Part shown: positions 55,478 to 64,000 of the stretch, one piece after another
Layout: the number at the start of each line of letters is the position of its first letter
Numbering within the stretch: the stretch's first letter is position 1
NCBI RefSeq assembly: GCF_003019035.1
Contig: NZ_CP027447.1
Reading direction: 5' to 3' (one strand)
DNA from: Escherichia coli
GTDB lineage: Bacteria; Pseudomonadota; Gammaproteobacteria; Enterobacterales; Enterobacteriaceae
Length of the DNA: 64,000 bases
Made by a program: the position numbers and the translations under genes
The notes under the pieces: generated by a model
What the model was told of the DNA's origin: nothing
What the model saw: the letters and a program-made list of their open reading frames with translations, nothing else
The model's database searches: none

Positions 55478-55996
55478 ATGCCAACACCGTGTTATATCTC
55501 CATCACTGGTCAGACCCAGGGAAATATTACTGCAGGTGCATTTACCGCTGATTCTGTCGGCAACATCTATGTGCAGGGGCACGAAGACGAGATGCTGGTG
55601 CAGGAATTCCTGCATAACGTTACTGTCCCGACCGATCCTCAGTCCGGCCAGCCTGCGGGTCAGCGTGCTCACAAGCCGTTCATTTTTACCGTGGCGCTGA
55701 ACAAAGCTGTTCCGCTGATGTACAACGCACTGGCCTCCGGCGAAATGCTGCCAACCACTGAACTTCACTGGTGGCGTACCTCTGTGGAAGGCAAACAGGA
55801 GCATTATTTCACCACCCGCCTGACCGATTCGACGATTGTCGATATGAAACTGCATATGCCGCATTGCCAGGATCCGGCGAAACGCGAGTTCACCCAGTTG
55901 CTCGAAGTTTCACTGGCCTACCGCAAAATAGAGTGGGAACACGTCAAATCTGGCACCTCCGGTGCCGACGACTGGCGCGCACCGCTGGAAGCATAA
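55478..55996 (+). CDS. hcp: T6SS inner tube protein Hcp (TssD)
   Basis: 172-aa ORF MPTPCYISITGQTQGNITAGAFTADSVGNIYVQGHEDE... Confidence 0.93.
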   Translation: MPTPCYISITGQTQGNITAGAFTADSVGNIYVQGHEDEMLVQEFLHNVTVPTDPQSGQPAGQRAHKPFIFTVALNKAVPLMYNALASGEMLPTTELHWWRTSVEGKQEHYFTTRLTDSTIVDMKLHMPHCQDPAKREFTQLLEVSLAYRKIEWEHVKSGTSGADDWRAPLEA

Positions 55997-56205: not shown

Positions 56206-58314
56206 ATGTCAACCGGATTACGTTTCACGCTGGAAGTGGACGGCCTGCCACCGGACGCGTTTGCGGTGGTCTCCTTTCATCTGAACCAGTCACTCTCTTC
56301 GCTCTTTTCCCTCGATCTCTCTCTGGTCAGCCAGCAGTTTCTCTCCCTTGAATTTGCGCAGGTGCTGGACAAAATGGCCTACCTGACGGTATGGCAGGGC
56401 GATGACGTACAGCGCCGGGTGAAAGGTGTGGTGACCTGGTTTGAACTGGGGGAGAACGACAAAAACCAGATGCTGTACAGCATGAAGGTGTGCCCACCGC
56501 TGTGGCGCACAGGGCTGCGCCAGAACTTCCGTATCTTCCAGAATGAGGACATCGAAAGCATACTCGCGACGATCCTGAAAGAAAACGGGGTGACCGAGTG
56601 GAGTCCGCTGTTCAGCGAGCCGCATCCTTCCCGTGAGTTTTGTGTCCAGTACGGCGAAACCGATTACGATTTCCTGTGCCGGATGGCGGCGGAGGAAGGC
56701 ATCTTCTTTTATGAGGAGCACGCGCAAAAAAGTACCGACCAGAGCCTGGTCCTGTGCGACACCGTGCGTTATCTGCCGGAGTCCTTTGAGATCCCCTGGA
56801 ATCCGAACACCCGTACCGAGGTGAGCACCCTATGCATCAGCCAGTTCCTCTACAGCGCACAAATCCGCCCATCTTCCGTGGTGACCAAAGACTACACCTT
56901 TAAACGACCCGGCTGGGCAGGGCGTTTTGATCAGGAAGGCCAGCACCAGGATTACCAGCGCACACAGTATGAAGTGTATGACTACCCCGGACGTTTCAAG
57001 GGTGCCCACGGGCAGAACTTTGCCTGCTGGCAGATGGATGGCTGGCGAAACAACGCAGAAGTGGCGCGCGGAACAAGCCGTTCGCCGGAGATATGGCCGG
57101 GACGGCGAATTGCGCTGACGGGGCATCCGCAGGCGAACCTGAACCGGGAATGGCAGGTGGTGGCAAGTGAACTGCACGGCGAGCAGCCGCAGGCGGTGCC
57201 GGGACGCAGTGGTTCAGGTACCACGCTGAATAACCACTTTGCGGTAATACCGGCAGACAGAACATGGCGGCCACAGCCGTTGCTGAAACCGCTGGTGGAC
57301 GGCCCGCAGAGCGCCGTCGTGACGGGACCGGCAGGAGAAGAAATCTTCTGTGATGAACATGGCCGCGTGCGGGTGAAATTTAACTGGGACCGTTATAACC
57401 CGTCAAACCAGGACAGTTCATGCTGGATCCGTGTGGCACAGGCGTGGGCAGGCACCGGGTTTGGTAACCTGGCGATACCGCGTGTGGGTCAGGAGGTCAT
57501 TGTGGACTTCCTCAACGGCGATCCGGACCAGCCGATTATTATGGGGCGCACCTACCACCAGGAAAACCGCACCCCCGGCAGCCTGCCGGGAACAAAGACG
57601 CAAATGACCATTCGTTCAAAAACCTATAAGGGCAGCGGGTTTAATGAACTGAAGTTTGACGATGCGACAGGGAAAGAACAGGTCTACATCCACGCGCAGA
57701 AGAACATGAACACCGAGGTGCTGAATAACCGCACCACAGATGTGATAAACAACCATGCTGAGACCATCGGCAACAATCAGGTGATTGCGGTTACCAACAA
57801 TCAGATACAGACGGTGGGCGTTAACCAGATAGAGACGGTGGGCAGTAACCAGATCATTAAAGTGGGCTCTGTTCAGGTGGAAACGATTGGACTTGTTCGT
57901 GCGCTGACTGTGGGCGTGGCGTATCAGACGACGGTAGGTGGCATTATGAACACCTCGGTGGCCCTGATGCAGTCCTCGCAGATCGGTTTGCATAAATCGT
58001 TGATGGTCGGGCTGGGTTATGACGTCAAAGTCGGAAATAACGTTACCTTCACCGTTGGTAAAACGAAAAAGGATGATACCGGGCAGACCGCGATTTACTC
58101 CGCCGGTGAGCATCTGGAACTCTGCTGTGGTAAGGCAAGGCTGGTGCTGACTAAGGACGGACAAATTTTTCTCAACGGCACAAAAATTCATTTGCAGGGT
58201 AAGGAGCAGGTTAATGGTGACTCACTGTTGATTAACTGGAACTGTGCAGCCTCGAAATCCCCACCGAAGACCCCTGATGAAAAGCAGGATACGCCGGATA
58301 TGAGAGAGTACTGA
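56206..58314 (+). CDS. vgrG: T6SS spike protein VgrG (TssI)
   Basis: 702-aa ORF, N-terminus MSTGLRFTLEVDGLPPDAFAVVSFHLNQSLSSLFSLDLSLVSQQ, beta-helix repeat region (TVGVNQIETVGSNQIIKVGSVQVETIG). Confidence 0.93.
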   Translation: MSTGLRFTLEVDGLPPDAFAVVSFHLNQSLSSLFSLDLSLVSQQFLSLEFAQVLDKMAYLTVWQGDDVQRRVKGVVTWFELGENDKNQMLYSMKVCPPLWRTGLRQNFRIFQNEDIESILATILKENGVTEWSPLFSEPHPSREFCVQYGETDYDFLCRMAAEEGIFFYEEHAQKSTDQSLVLCDTVRYLPESFEIPWNPNTRTEVSTLCISQFLYSAQIRPSSVVTKDYTFKRPGWAGRFDQEGQHQDYQRTQYEVYDYPGRFKGAHGQNFACWQMDGWRNNAEVARGTSRSPEIWPGRRIALTGHPQANLNREWQVVASELHGEQPQAVPGRSGSGTTLNNHFAVIPADRTWRPQPLLKPLVDGPQSAVVTGPAGEEIFCDEHGRVRVKFNWDRYNPSNQDSSCWIRVAQAWAGTGFGNLAIPRVGQEVIVDFLNGDPDQPIIMGRTYHQENRTPGSLPGTKTQMTIRSKTYKGSGFNELKFDDATGKEQVYIHAQKNMNTEVLNNRTTDVINNHAETIGNNQVIAVTNNQIQTVGVNQIETVGSNQIIKVGSVQVETIGLVRALTVGVAYQTTVGGIMNTSVALMQSSQIGLHKSLMVGLGYDVKVGNNVTFTVGKTKKDDTGQTAIYSAGEHLELCCGKARLVLTKDGQIFLNGTKIHLQGKEQVNGDSLLINWNCAASKSPPKTPDEKQDTPDMREY

Positions 58315-58380: not shown

Positions 58381-61300
58381 ATGAGCGGAAAACCGGCGGC
58401 GCGTCAGGGAGATATGACCCAGTATGGCGGTCCCATTGTCCAGGGTTCGGCAGGTGTAAGAATTGGCGCGCCCACCGGCGTGGCCTGTTCAGTGTGCCCG
58501 GGCGGAGTCACTTCCGGCAACCCGGTAAACCCGCTGCTGGGAGCGAAGGTGCTGCCCGGTGAGACGGATGTTGCGCTGCCCGGTCCGCTGCCGTTCATTC
58601 TCTCCCGCACCTACAGCAGCTACCGGACCCGGACGCCTGCACCGGTGGGCGTTTTCGGCCCCGGCTGGAAAGCGCCTTCTGATATCCGCTTACAGCTACG
58701 TGATGACGGACTGATACTCAACGACAACGGCGGGCGGAGCATTCACTTTGAGCCGCTGCTGCCGGGGGAGGCGGTGTACAGCCGCAGCGAGTCAATGTGG
58801 CTGGTGCGTGGCGGTAAGGCAACGCAGCCGGACGGCCACACGCTGGCACGGCTGTGGGCGTCGCTGCCGCCGGATATCCGGTTAAGCCCGCATCTTTACC
58901 TGGCGACCAACAGCGCACAGGGGCCGTGGTGGATACTCGGCTGGTCAGAGCGGGTGCCGGGTACTGAGGACGTACTGCCAGCGCCGCTGCCGCCGTACCG
59001 GGTGCTTACCGGGCTGGCGGACCGCTTCGGGCAGACGCTGACGTACCGGCGTGAGGCCGCCGGTGACCTGGCCGGGGAAATCACCGGCGTGACGGACGGT
59101 GCCGGGCGGAAGTTCCGTCTGGTGCTGACCACACAGGCGCAGCGGGCGGAAGAGGCCCGTAAACAGCACACCGCTTCCTTATCTTCCCCTGACACCCCCC
59201 GCCCTCTTTCAGACTCAGCTTTCCCCGACACACTGCCCGGTACGGAATACGGCCCCGACAGGGGTATCCGCCTTTCGGCGGTGTGGCTGATGCACGACCC
59301 GGCATACCCGGAAAGCCTGCCCGGTGCGCCACTGGCGCGGTACACGTATACGGAAGCCGGTGAACTGCTGGCGGTATATGACCGCAGCAATACGCAGGTG
59401 CGCGCTTTCACGTATGACGTGCAGCACCCGGGCCGGATGGTGGGGCACCGTTATGCGGGAAGGCCGGAGATGCGCTACCGCTACGACAATACCGGGCGGG
59501 TGGTGGAGCAGCTGAACCCGGCAGGGTTAAGCTATCGCTATCTTTATGAGCAGGACCGCATCACCATCACGGACAGCCTGAACCGGCGAGAGGTGCTGCA
59601 TACAGAAGGCGGGGCCGGGCTGAAGCGGGTGGTGAAAAAAGAACTGGCGGACGGCAGCGTCACGCACAGCGGGTATGACGCGGCAGGAAGGCTCACGGCA
59701 CAGACGGACGCGGCGGGACGGCAGACAGAGTACGGTCTGAATGTGGTGTCAGGCGATATCACGGACATCACCACGCCGGACGGGCGGGAGACGAAATTTT
59801 ACTATAACGACGGGAACCAGGTGACGGCAGTGGTGTCCCCGGACGGGCTGGAGAGCCGCCGGGCGTATGATGAGCGGGACAGGCTGGTAACGGAGACATC
59901 GCGCAGTGGGGACGTCATCCGGTATGCTTATGATAATCCGCACAGTGAATTACCGGCCACGACAACAGATGCGACGGGCAGCACCCGGCAGATGACCTGG
60001 AGCCGCTACGGGCAGTTGCTGGCGTTCACCGACTGCTCGGGCTACCAGACCCGCTATGAGTACGACCGCTTCGGCCAGATGACGGCGGTCCACCGCGAGG
60101 AAGGCATCAGCCTTTACCGCCGCTATGACAACCGTGGCCGGTTAACCTCGGTGAAAGACGCACAGGCCCGTGAAACGCAGTATGAGTACAACGCCGCAGG
60201 CGACCTGACTGCCGTTATCACCCCGGATGGCAACCGGAGTGAGACACAGTACGATGGGTGGGGAAAGGCCATCAGCACCACGCAGGGCGGGCTGACGCGC
60301 AGTATGGAGTACGATGCTGCCGGACGTATCACCACGCTGACTAACGAGAACGGCAGCCACAGCGACTTTAGTTACGATGCGCTGGACCGCCTGATACAGC
60401 AGGGCGGCTTTGACGGGCGGACGCAACGTTATCATTATGACCTGACCGGAAAACTCACGCAGAGTGAAGATGAGGGGCTTGTCATCCTCTGGTACTACGA
60501 TGAATCGGACCGTATTACTCACCGCACGGTAAACGGTGAACCGGCAGAACAGTGGCGGTATGACGGCCACGGCTGGCTGAGAGAAATCAGCCACCTGAGC
60601 GAAGGCCACCGTGTTGCCGTCCACTATGGCTATGATAATAAAGGCCGCCTGACCAGTGAGCGCCAGACGGTGCATCACCCGGAGACGGGAGAGCTGCTCT
60701 GGCAGCATGAGACCGGACATGCGTACAACGAACAGGGGCTGGCAAACCGCGTCACGCCGGACAGTCTGCCGCCGGTGGAGTGGCTGACCTATGGTAGCGG
60801 TTATCTGGCAGGCATGAAGCTGGGCGGGACGCCGCTGCTGGAGTTCACGCGCGACCGCCTGCACCGTGAGACGGTGCGCAGCTTCGGCAGCATGGCAGGC
60901 AGTAATGCCGCATACGAACTGACCAGCACATACACCCCTGCAGGCCAGTTACAGAGTCAGCACCTGAACAGCCTGGTGTATGACCGTGACTACGGGTGGA
61001 ATGACAACGGAGACCTGGTGCGCATCAGCGGCCCGCGACAGACGCGGGAATACGGCTACAGCGCCACGGGCAGGCTGGAGAGTGTGCGCACCCTCGCACC
61101 GGACCTGGACATCCGCATCCCGTATGCCACGGACCCGGCGGGCAACCGGCTGCCGGACCCGGAGCTGCACCCGGACAGTACACTCACAGTGTGGCCGGAT
61201 AACCGCATCGCGGAGGATGCGCACTATGTCTACCGCCACGATGAATACGGCAGGCTGACGGAGAAGACGGACCGCATCCCGGCGGGTGTGATACGGACGG

Positions 61301-61989
61301 ACGACGAGCGGACCCACCACTACCACTACGACAGCCAGCACCGCCTGGTGTTCTACACGCGGATACAGCATGGCGAGCCACTGGTCGAGAGCCGCTACGT
61401 CTACGACCCGCAGGGACGGCGAATGGCGAAACGGGTATGGCGGCGGGAGCGTGACCTGACGGGGTGGATGTCGCTGTCGCGTAAACCGGAGGTGACGTGG
61501 TACGGCTGGGACGGCGACCACCTGACGACGGTGCAGACCGACAGCACACGTATCCAGACGGTATACGAGCCGGGAAGCTTCACACCGCTCATCCGCATCG
61601 AAACAGACAACGGCGAGCGGGAGAAAACGCAGCGGCGGAGCCTGGCGGAGAAGCTCCAGCAGGAAGGGAGCGAGGACGGACACGGTGTGGTGTTCCCGGC
61701 TGAACTGGTGAGGATGCTGGACAGGCTGGAGGAAGAAATCCGGGCAGACCGCGTGAGCGGTGAAAGCCGGACGTGGCTTGCACAGTGCGGGCTGGCGGTG
61801 GAGCAACTGGAAAAACAGGTGGAGCCGGAATACACGCCGGAACGCACACTGCATCTTTACCACTGCGACCATCGGGGACTGCCGCTGGCGCTTATCAGCG
61901 AAGACGGCAATACGGTGTGGAGCGCGGAGTATGATGAATGGGGAAACCTGCTTAATGAGGAGAACCCGCATCATGTGTATCAGTCATAG
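58381..61989 (+). CDS. rhs: PAAR-domain Rhs protein, core region, terminated by in-frame TAG
   Basis: 1202-aa ORF; N-terminal PAAR-like region ([42 protein letters not shown]) then YD/RHS repeats; ends ...[11 protein letters not shown] at TAG 61987-61989. Confidence 0.9.
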
Positions 61990-62598
61990 CGTCTGCCGGG
62001 GCAGCAGCATGATGAGGAGTCGGGGCTGTATTATAACCGGAACCGGTACTACAATCCGTTGCTGGGGAGGTATATTACCCAGGATCCAATTGGGCTGGAG
62101 GGGGGATGGAACCTGTATAATTACCCACTGAATCCGATAATAAGGATGGATCCTTTGGGTTTGTATAATTTATATCAATTATTATATGATGTTTGGCATG
62201 ATGATTCATATGGAACATCATCAATTGATATTACTGGCAGTGGAGATCTAATATCATTAGGTGGTCATGCAGGACTTGGCGTTGCGTTTGCTAAAAAGAA
62301 AGGTGAAATGTTATCTGATATTTGTATTTATGCTACAGCATGCGGACATGCAGGAATTGGTGGTGGGATAAATGCGGCTATCACATATTCTGAGACCAAG
62401 TCTTTACCTACATCGGGAGTCAGCAATTCAGTAGGTGTAACGGTTGGCGGCGGAGTTGGGGGGCATTTTGCGTATACTTATGTAGTGGATGTTGATAATC
62501 CAGAATCATCGACAGAATCTGTTGGTATCGGTGCAGGTGTTGACGCTTCAGTTATGACTCTGGCTTGTAGAACGTGGCAAGAATGCTGGGTCAATTAA
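61990..62598 (+). other. Rhs C-terminal region in frame with the core: conserved junction (DPxGL motif) plus glycine-rich candidate toxin domain
   Basis: Same frame as 58381 ORF; [58 protein letters not shown] then an AT-rich, Gly-rich tail; track ORF 62059 begins at TTG, no ATG. Confidence 0.6.
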
Positions 62599-62609
62599 CA
62601 GGAGGAAAT

Positions 62610-63005
62610 ATGAAAGAATATATATTTTTAGTTTTATTTTTATTGTGTGGTTGTTCTCCAGTGGACATAGAGCCAGCTAGACAAGAAGTTAATATCTTTC
62701 GTGGTTTATATCAGACAGGAAAATACAGTGATATATATAAAATCACTTCAAGTGATTTTCAGACTGCCACATCTGAAAAAAAATTTATCGACATAATGAG
62801 CGAAGCAAAAGGAAAAGATCTTGGGACTTATAAAAAATCAACCCTTAAAACTGAAAAAATCACTCGCGGATTATTTTCAAACGATGAAATTACATTGATA
62901 TATTTCTCAGAATATTCAAAAAGAATTGTCCAAGAGGTTTTTGTGTTTAATGTTGAAGACAAAAAAGTAAAATTAAAAGGTTATAGGTATGATTCGATTA
63001 ATTAA
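62610..63005 (+). CDS. Putative lipoprotein, candidate Rhs immunity protein
   Basis: ORF 62574-63005; ATG at 62610 behind AGGAGG; MKEYIFLVLFLLCGCSP lipoprotein signal; AT-rich; immediately after the Rhs C-terminal domain. Confidence 0.6.
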   Translation: MKEYIFLVLFLLCGCSPVDIEPARQEVNIFRGLYQTGKYSDIYKITSSDFQTATSEKKFIDIMSEAKGKDLGTYKKSTLKTEKITRGLFSNDEITLIYFSEYSKRIVQEVFVFNVEDKKVKLKGYRYDSIN

Positions 63006-63297
63006 ATTTTTTGATGATGACTTCAATTAGTAGAACATGTATTTTTCGATAAAAGCACCGATGACTTTTTCATGAAGTTCTACAGAGCGCGAGAAACAGA
63101 TGGTTCTGCGAGTCAGACGTTTGATTCAGGTTCTCAGGGGCAGATTCAGGGACAGGGAAAGATCATCAGAAGTTCACTTTTTGCACTAAATAATTCGCAT
63201 TTTATGTTTAAAAATTGAGATATTTCTCATTACCTGAAACTGTTTTTTTATTGCTTATACATGATCAAATACTCCTTACATAATTAAGGAGAACAAA

Positions 63298-64000
63298 ATG
63301 GAACTTAAAAAATTGATGGAACATATTTCTGTTATCCCCGATTACAGACAAGCCTGGAAAGTGGAACATAAATTATCGGATATTCTACTGTTGACTATTT
63401 GTGCCGTTATTTCGGGTGCAGAAGGCTGGGAAGATATAGAGGATTTTGGGGAAACACATCTCGATTTTTTGAAGCAATATGGTGATTTTGATAATGGTAT
63501 TCCTGTTCACGATACCATTGCCAGAGTTGTATCCTGTATCAGTCCTGCAAAATTTCACGAGTGCTTTATTAACTGGATGCGTGACTGCCATTCTTCAGAT
63601 GATAAAGACGTCATCGCAATTGATGGAAAAACACTCCGGCATTCTTATGACAAGAGTCGCCGCAGGGGAGCGATTCATGTCATTAGTGCGTTCTCAACAA
63701 TGCACAGTCTGGTCATCGGACAGATCAGGACGGATGAGAAATCCAATGAGATTACAGCTATCCCTGAACTTCTTAACATGGTGGATATTAAAGGAAAAAT
63801 CATCACAACTGATGCGATGGGTTGCCAGAAAGATATAGCAGAGAAGATACAAAAACAGGGCGGTGATTATTTATTCGCTGTAAAAGGAAATCAGGGTCGG
63901 CTAAATAAAGCCTTTGAGGAAAAATTCCCACTGAAAGAATTAAATAATCCAGAACATGACAGTTACGCAATTAGTGAAAAGAGTCACGGCAGAGAAGAAA
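63298..64000 (+). mobile_element. ISAs1-family transposase (H-repeat-associated protein), 5' part; continues beyond window
   Basis: ATG at 63298 behind AAGGAG; [58 protein letters not shown]... matches E. coli H-rpt proteins; typical position downstream of Rhs elements. Confidence 0.85.

Follow-up and report, generated by a model that had tools for sequence, protein, structure and literature searches.

We analyzed a 64,000-nucleotide stretch of Escherichia coli DNA (contig NZ_CP027447.1), referred to here as the window, in which an Rhs gene next to a type VI secretion system (T6SS) cluster ends in a variable cassette: a C-terminal tail and, behind it, a gene for a small lipoprotein. Comparison with diverged relatives gives good support for the two as a cognate toxin-immunity pair. 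The pair is a further case of a known type of Rhs system, with a predicted toxin fold that, unexpectedly, resembles the Vap proteins of Rhodococcus equi. Judging from a stop codon ahead of the tail, the window strain most likely keeps only the immunity part, the toxin being cut off from its delivery protein.

Pairing of the tail with a lipoprotein

The pairing is conserved among diverged relatives of the tail. We examined the contigs of three diverged toxin members for downstream genes, taking identities to the window tail from a family alignment of 11 sequences (A1). In all three, a lipoprotein gene comes next and begins 12-80 nt downstream of the toxin. The toxin of P0031 is 46% identical to the window tail, and the lipoprotein that follows it is 41% identical to the window lipoprotein. 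The corresponding values are 33% and 34% for P0035, whose lipoprotein has a full DUF4019 match (L006), and 25% and 20% for P0042 from Pseudomonas sp. RIT-PI-AD, whose lipoprotein has a weak one (L007). This conserved adjacency with parallel divergence of the two proteins is good comparative support for a cognate toxin-immunity pair. It also sustains the claim of an initial annotation of this DNA, which had placed the tail and a cognate lipoprotein in the variable cassette position of an Rhs element: family members only 25-46% identical to the tail still precede homologous lipoproteins. Beyond the diverged pair in Pseudomonas sp. RIT-PI-AD, we observed more small open reading frames (ORFs) and a second RHS-domain fragment (L007, 1351-4665), an arrangement that suggests orphan Rhs tails and immunity genes lined up in an array.

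The tail starts directly after the second of two DPxGL motifs (DPLGL) and spans 144 residues (62164-62595, with the stop codon at 62596-62598). Composition and conservation change abruptly at this end of the core, as they do after the PxxxxDPxGL core end of Rhs polymorphic toxin cassettes. GC content is 0.63 for the Rhs core but 0.41 for the tail and 0.285 for the immunity gene. Glycine makes up 16% of the tail, G, S, V, A, and T together make up 52%, and the net charge is -9. These values bear out the earlier description of an AT-rich tail of small residues after DPLGL, and all four glycine-rich peptides quoted at that time are present in the translation of 62059-62598. Position 62059, which had been taken as the start, is merely the first TTG of a mechanical ORF after a TAG in the Rhs frame.

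Searches with the tail and its family revealed no recognizable enzymatic motif, in agreement with the initial annotation. Neither the tail nor any of the 11 family members matched Pfam, the tail had no match in NCBIfam or PADLOC, and the A1 profile matched none of the PDB sequences. Two marginal matches, to OCRE (E 0.036, inside the remainder of the Rhs core) and to CpaA (E 0.44), were treated as noise. The family is tiny: phmmer, run exhaustively on 1.84 billion cluster representatives, gave 23 matches, and a profile search of a 5.8-billion set found no further distant members. Every complete member follows an Rhs DPxGL motif. As judged by these searches, the tail domain belongs to no described toxin family. 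One candidate relative, P0027 (E. coli, 163 residues, "YdcD family protein" in UniRef), was not used, as it looks like a tail split into segments by unrelated insertions; it is probably an assembly or annotation artifact with a name in UniRef that seems to mislead.

The most likely start of the lipoprotein is the ATG at 62610 rather than the GTG at 62574, in agreement with the NCBI annotation of other genomes. This ATG lies 11 nt past the stop codon of the tail and 4 nt after an AGGAGG at 62600-62605. The signal peptide (MKEYIFLVLFLLCGC15-S) contains a lipobox, L-C-G-C15, of the pattern [LVI][ASTVIC][GAS]C (PROSITE PS51257), which is the basis for calling the protein a lipoprotein. At least 90% of 17 homologs share Cys15, so the earlier identification of the next gene as a lipoprotein gene holds. 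The O157:H7 protein carries C13Y and keeps C15. Under the Lol rule of E. coli, a serine at position +2 sorts a lipoprotein to the outer membrane. Because Ser is present at +2, the protein is predicted to be anchored there and probably faces the periplasm.

An AlphaFold2 (AF2) model of the lipoprotein, with a predicted local distance difference test score (pLDDT) of 87.9, consists of the signal-peptide helix, four helices (residues 21-68), and a four-stranded sheet. It matches NTF2-fold domains, among them the N-terminal domain of PBP2a, NTF2, and G3BP. The mature part is predicted to form an NTF2-like alpha+beta cone, which agrees with weak Pfam matches to DUF3887 (E 0.0033) and DUF4019 (E 0.0095); DUF5851 also matched weakly.

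Predicted fold of the tail

We modeled the tail with AF2 on the A1 alignment and obtained a model of moderate confidence (pLDDT 77.6; predicted template modeling score 0.67). The sole helix covers residues 3-12, and strands run over residues 17-29, 32-44, 52-78, 85-97, 101-109, and 116-142, giving about eight strands. The strands are predicted to be amphipathic, with I, L, V, F, and Y on one face and G, S, T, and A on the other. The tail is thereby predicted to be a small, glycine-rich, all-beta barrel.

Conserved cysteines fit the strand arrangement. The four at positions 54, 60, 135, and 141 occur in eight of nine complete members of the family, and one diverged member is without exactly C60 and C135, which were lost together. 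The positions 54 and 141 and the positions 60 and 135 each add up to 195, a shared antiparallel register. Because the sums are equal, the members of each pair would face each other if strand 52-64 runs antiparallel to strand 130-142. We infer two disulfides from this pattern, C54-C141 and C60-C135, and the tail would therefore be expected to fold in an oxidizing compartment. Further residues that are invariant or nearly so are polar: K44, D52, Y56, D109, N112, and S119.

The tail model has the eight-stranded barrel fold of the Vap type. The best structural matches were R. equi VapB (score 11.7) and VapG (11.0), followed by a Brucella COG5400 barrel (8.5), eight-stranded transmembrane barrels (designed TMBs, OprF, OmpA, PagL, NspA, and OmpW; 6-7.6), and the SYLF proteins BefA (5.5) and BPSL1445 (5.0). 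Pairing of strand 3 with strand 8, which the cysteine register of the tail would imply, is a feature of the Vap strand order as well. The likeness lies at the level of fold only, at 9-10% identity. Sequence homology to Vap was rejected, based on a probability of 0.2% when A1 was aligned by hhalign with a Vap alignment rebuilt from PDB matches. An hmmsearch of A1 against PDB sequences likewise did not find the Vap entries 4cv7, 5aeo, and 4csb, and there was no Pfam match. The remote-homology and structure-prediction check proposed in the initial annotation gave no homology by sequence or profile and a predicted all-beta, Vap-like barrel.

We searched AFDB50 with Foldseek and recovered near-identical copies together with many Rhs C termini at 17-29% identity, from Buttiauxella, Salmonella bongori, S. 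Infantis, Yokenella, Diaphorobacter, Neisseria elongata, Luteibacter, and Treponema. One Hafnia Rhs C terminus reached 51% identity, and one ShlA/HecA/FhaA-type exoprotein and eukaryotic Ysc84/Lsb3/FYVE (SYLF) proteins were also found. The Rhs C termini matched in the structure search come from Proteobacteria, Spirochaetes, Bacteroidota, and Actinobacteria. Because so many Rhs C termini and one ShlA/FhaA-type exoprotein share the predicted shape, the tail could represent a large superfamily, as yet without a name, of glycine-rich, Vap-like barrel toxins that are stapled by disulfides and permeabilize membranes; we regard this as a speculative extension of the model that is doubtful at present.

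Proposed mechanism and alternatives

We propose that the tail is a beta-barrel toxin that acts in the periplasm by damaging a membrane and is neutralized by the lipoprotein. In strains with an intact gene, the 144-residue tail would be packed unfolded in the Rhs shell, cleaved from it after DPLGL by the aspartyl protease of the shell itself, and fired with VgrG by the T6SS into the periplasm of a neighboring cell. There it would fold oxidatively into a small glycine-rich barrel stapled by two disulfides and damage the membrane noncatalytically, most likely by depolarizing or permeabilizing the inner membrane. The lipoprotein would guard sibling cells by binding the incoming toxin directly. Taken as a whole, this scheme has about an even chance of being correct in our estimation.

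An envelope target is the most plausible reading of the sequences because the tail has four conserved, in-register cysteines and its immunity protein is predicted to be periplasmic. The initial annotation had suggested a toxin acting on the envelope or a membrane; an envelope or membrane target remains the most plausible reading, and insertion as helices is unsupported. We favor nonenzymatic membrane action because the tail matches no family or PDB sequence and its predicted all-beta strands are amphipathic. Related behavior has been described for several proteins: VapA and VapN are reported to be membrane active and pH neutralizing (PMC10100859), BefA has been called a disrupter of membranes (bioRxiv 10.1101/2022.03.24.485696), and Ntox25 and Tse4 are beta-barrel ionophore toxins (PMC11630599). 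Tse5 demonstrates that an Rhs shell can carry a pore-former (PMC9637101). As for immunity, Sip6, which protects from a depolarizing T6SS effector, is located at the outer membrane, and Tli1, the immunity protein for the phospholipase effector Tle1, is an outer membrane lipoprotein (PMC6889166).

Several points weigh against this proposal. The fold comes from one AF2 model of moderate confidence built on 11 sequences, and the similarity to Vap is confined to the fold, as described above. Transfer of function from Vap is unsure because small eight-stranded barrels are a common architecture, and VapB, the top structural match, is a less membrane-active Vap (PMC10100859). In the model, the hydrophobic face may point inward, as in a soluble barrel, or outward, as in a membrane barrel. 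The net charge of -9 is unusual for a binder of anionic bacterial membranes, and the conserved polar residues could form an active site that we did not recognize. In addition, O157:H7 has a frameshifted immunity gene beside an intact toxin, which is hard to square with potency and expression of the toxin unless the T6SS of O157:H7 is silent.

The conserved polar residues K44, D52, Y56, D109, N112, and S119 would also suit a periplasmic enzyme with an unrecognized active site that attacks peptidoglycan, lipid II, lipoproteins, or phospholipids and is blocked at that site by the lipoprotein. A periplasmic immunity protein and conserved cysteines suit any effector that acts in the envelope, and where a periplasmic T6SS effector is countered by a lipoprotein or a periplasmic immunity protein, it is in most known cases an amidase, a muramidase, or a lipase. 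Weighed against the missing family and PDB matches, an enzyme is an unlikely candidate. We consider it slightly less likely still that the tail is a noncatalytic binder that blocks a periplasmic or outer membrane machine or ligand, such as Bam, Lpt, Lol, or lipid II. A binder would fit an envelope target, but nothing specific points to any of these partners, and the strongest structural neighbors (Vap, then transmembrane barrels) are membrane related.

The initial annotation had read the glycines as a membrane-inserting zipper with GxxxG-like spacing. As an alpha-helical peptide of this kind, the tail would resemble Tse5-CT, contact-dependent inhibition (CDI) type-10 ionophores, and EsxX. The tail does contain six GxxxG and several [GAS]xxxGxxx[GAS] matches, and such helices occur in other contact-dependent toxins (PMC11630599; PMC12744356), but we regard this reading as very improbable: strands cover all glycine-rich segments of the AF2 model, GxxxG is not enriched over shuffled sequences (6 observed against 3.4 expected, p ~0.09), GxG is the enriched spacing (8 against 3.5, p ~0.01), in keeping with the i+2 glycine periodicity of strands, and Kyte-Doolittle hydropathy over 19 residues peaks at 1.06, below the level of a transmembrane helix. 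Tse4, the toxin of the Tse4/Tsi4 pair of Pseudomonas aeruginosa, was likewise first read as a glycine zipper and then re-read as a beta-barrel (PMC11630599). We also dropped outer membrane protein-like insertion of the proposed barrel through a C-terminal beta-signal, as the family ends in C-x-x-N/H/D, with no terminal aromatic residue.

Distribution and loci in other strains

The cassette is not rare. We found the tail, at a coverage of at least 80%, in 1,318 of 5,426 complete E. coli genomes (~24%), almost all copies being at least 99% identical, and the immunity gene in 1,365 of the 5,426 at 95-100% identity. Tail matches of at least 99% identity were counted in 1,359 genomes. The NCBI product name of the lipoprotein is "RHS element protein dsORF-e4," and the cassette is the already named e4/dsORF-e4 variant of the Rhs polymorphic toxin system. 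The pair had initially been called uncharacterized. This is accurate for experiments, as we found no experimental study of the dsORF-e4 toxin in the searchable literature; the element itself is already named, is present in ~24% of genomes, and has been discussed in silico for the RhsE of O157:H7. That in silico study, of strain EDL933, described an "RhsE" without a recognizable motif and a 61-residue downstream ORF with a lipoprotein signal (PMC7216683).

Two strains in which the tail is fused to its shell are H5, where it lies within an intact Rhs protein of 1402 residues, and O157:H7 PV15-279, where the intact protein has 1386 residues. In both, the cassette occupies the classical RhsE locus (vgrG-rhs-...-ydcC-pptA-yddH-nhoA). 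The K-12 RhsE locus has a different downstream gene, ydcD. The tail DNA of PV15-279 is 100% identical to that of the window. Its immunity gene (L008, 5447-5841, corresponding to 62610-63005 of the window) is split into ORFs of 61 and 69 residues by an A8-to-A7 frameshift in a homopolymer run, with the toxin tail intact. The 61-residue ORF of EDL933 is the front half of the immunity gene cut by this frameshift.

The tail, the immunity gene, an IS1 remnant, and an ISAs1 element form a block common to two chromosomal loci, each time after vgrG-rhs. Its presence at both loci (that of strain SCU-301 and that of H5 and O157:H7) suggests that the 3' block travels, or is exchanged by recombination, in one piece.

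An amber codon between shell and tail

The Rhs frame of the window is open from 58381 to 62598 except for a single in-frame TAG at 61987-61989 (codon 1203). The tail had initially been presented as part of the Rhs protein, a view that fails for the window, where this codon separates the two. Of the 1261 positions of the RHS_core model, the ORF covers 1-1202 and so falls 59 short. The conserved core end is present after the TAG, with DPIGL at 62083-62097 and DPLGL at 62149-62163; the stretch from DPIGL to DPLGL is the conserved core end and self-cleavage region of Rhs proteins. As predicted from the reading frame, the Rhs shell of the window is thus truncated ahead of its C-terminal self-cleavage region, and the tail is not translated as one polypeptide with it, as it is in H5 and O157:H7.

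The closest complete genome, SCU-301 (99.46% identity across ~8.1 kb), has TAC (Tyr) in place of the TAG. As this TAC-to-TAG change ends the Rhs ORF early, an effector that includes the tail is most likely not produced here, barring a sequencing error or suppression of the stop. A 63-nt probe centered on the TAG found at best a 98.4% match, with one mismatch, and no exact one among the 5,426 complete E. coli genomes. The absence of this codon from all genomes searched leaves two readings, a nonsense mutation private to the window or an error of sequencing. The tail DNA is undamaged, and as it is still 100% identical to copies within intact genes of other strains, the lesion would be recent.

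Aligned with the window over these 8.1 kb, SCU-301 shows 17 gap openings, and its annotation lists both vgrG and rhs as pseudogenes with frameshifts (L001, 319-6699). These differences are suspect because the VgrG ORF of the window is intact, and they may stem from indel errors in the assembly instead of true lesions.

We lean modestly toward reading the cassette of the window as a decaying remnant, in which the toxin is a pseudogene and the immunity gene alone, if anything, is under selection. The private TAG, the pseudogene annotation of vgrG and rhs in the nearest relative, and the IS1 remnant and ISAs1 element that flank the cassette are consistent with decay, as is the reciprocal state of O157:H7, where the toxin is intact and the immunity gene is frameshifted. 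On the other side, a lone substitution could be a sequencing error or be suppressed, and the full identity of the tail to intact copies makes the lesion recent. Decay would concern activity in the window strain only and is compatible with the periplasmic barrel function proposed for the family.

Locus layout

An apparently complete T6SS cluster closes the window, based on NCBIfam matches, and the cassette lies at its end (Table 1). This arrangement matches that of SCU-301, where the cassette ends the T6SS cluster and the neighbors are yafV-ivy-fadE; the window appears to share it, although it stops inside the transposase gene. The initial annotation had placed an H-repeat transposase just behind the cassette. 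An ISAs1/H-repeat transposase is indeed present, but the IS1 remnant intervenes. An ATG-initiated ORF of 48 residues at 63072-63218 overlaps the region of the IS1 remnant and is probably meaningless.

Table 1. Features of the T6SS and Rhs region at the end of the window
Feature	Position	Strand	Basis
TssM, ClpV, TssF, TssC, TssB	upstream of Hcp	-	NCBIfam
Hcp/TssD tube protein	55478..55996	+	NCBIfam TIGR03344, E 1.7e-61
VgrG spike protein, 702 residues, intact	56206..58314	+	TIGR03361, E 3.7e-188
PAAR-Rhs core ORF, 1202 residues, premature in-frame TAG end	58381..61989	+	NF041261 RHS_core
Rhs core remainder, 58 codons, same frame	61990..62163	+	DPIGL and DPLGL motifs
Variable C-terminal domain (putative toxin), 144 residues and stop, four conserved Cys	62164..62598	+	Translation, family alignment, AF2
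Immunity gene (putative), 131-residue lipoprotein, NTF2-like/DUF4019-like	62610..63005	+	AGGAGG, NCBI annotation, AF2
IS1 transposase remnant, 99 nt	63027..63125	-	SCU-301 annotation; exact copy in window
ISAs1-family (H-repeat, ISEc1-like) transposase, 5' part, runs past window end	63298..64000	+	NF033564, E 5.1e-84

Comparison with known systems

The cassette is the same as the RhsE-type "core extension e4/dsORF-e4," including "RhsEI" of EDL933, which was analyzed by I-TASSER analogies only (RsaA and PfbA) and with the 61-residue immunity fragment (PMC7216683). The window copy has the same IS1 remnant and ISAs1 element downstream as the RhsE cassettes; it differs from them in lying at the T6SS-1 cluster rather than at the ydcC-pptA locus and in carrying the private amber codon.

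According to the model, the tail would be closest to Tse4 and Ntox25 in concept and to Vap in shape. To our knowledge, there are no solved structures for Ntox25 or Tse4, and neither appears by name among the top 50 AFDB50 matches of the tail. Membership in Ntox25 (PF15530) was rejected: Pfam gave no Ntox25 match at E<=10 for the tail and none in the 11 members, and the tail lacks FGPY, the signature of Ntox25 (PMC3482391). Ntox25 (CdiA-CT type 14) and Tse4 are small predicted beta-barrels with contact-dependent delivery that collapse the membrane potential (PMC11630599). The carriers differ: the present tail belongs to Rhs and Ntox25 to CdiA, whereas Tse4 is a stand-alone effector.

The Vap proteins (VapA/B/D/G; Pfam R_equi_Vir) are Sec-secreted actinobacterial virulence factors that act on host phagosomes. 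Unlike the tail, they are not ends of polymorphic toxins, they have no immunity partner, and the four Vap cores that we aligned contain no cysteine. The SYLF/DUF500 proteins (Ysc84, SH3YL1, BPSL1445, and BefA) score much lower than Vap by structure, and Pfam PF04366 is not matched.

Tse5 (RhsP1)/Tsi5 of P. aeruginosa resembles the present system in its PAAR-like Rhs shell, T6SS delivery, and tail of ~150 residues (PMC9637101). The Tse5 tail is nonenzymatic and depolarizes membranes (PMC9637101), an action that is a proposal for the tail described here. Tse5-CT is predicted to be helical and transmembrane and is toxic from the cytoplasm too, whereas our tail is predicted to be all-beta and has cysteines. 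Tsi5 is an inner membrane protein of two helices (PMC9637101), whereas the immunity protein here is a lipoprotein with a soluble domain. NTF2-fold immunity proteins (Imm-NTF2 and Imm-NTF2-2) have already been catalogued in polymorphic toxin systems (PMC3482391), and the same fold is predicted here. Those catalogued as Imm-NTF2 pair with Tox-NucA and Tox-JAB-2, a nuclease and a JAB-type toxin (PMC3482391), and the window protein differs in being a lipoprotein.

Biological significance

The cassette is carried by about one-quarter of complete E. coli genomes, including O157:H7, and its toxin action is without a reported experiment in the searchable literature. The reciprocal decay that we observed, with the toxin disabled here and the immunity gene frameshifted in O157:H7, amounts to a natural experiment, on a small scale, in the maintenance and loss of such cassettes. 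If the tail is a barrel toxin that attacks membranes from the periplasm, it would add a third structural solution for membrane attack by the T6SS to the existing ones, the helical pore-formers (Tse5 and Ssp6) and the Ntox25/Tse4 barrels. Should the wider superfamily prove to exist, the Vap proteins of R. equi, and perhaps SYLF domains, would share ancestry or mechanism with interbacterial toxins. A periplasmic barrel toxin of this kind would also give the Vap-like fold, the mechanism of which is under debate, a tractable E. coli model that comes with its cognate inhibitor, and would show how an outer membrane lipoprotein can neutralize such a toxin.

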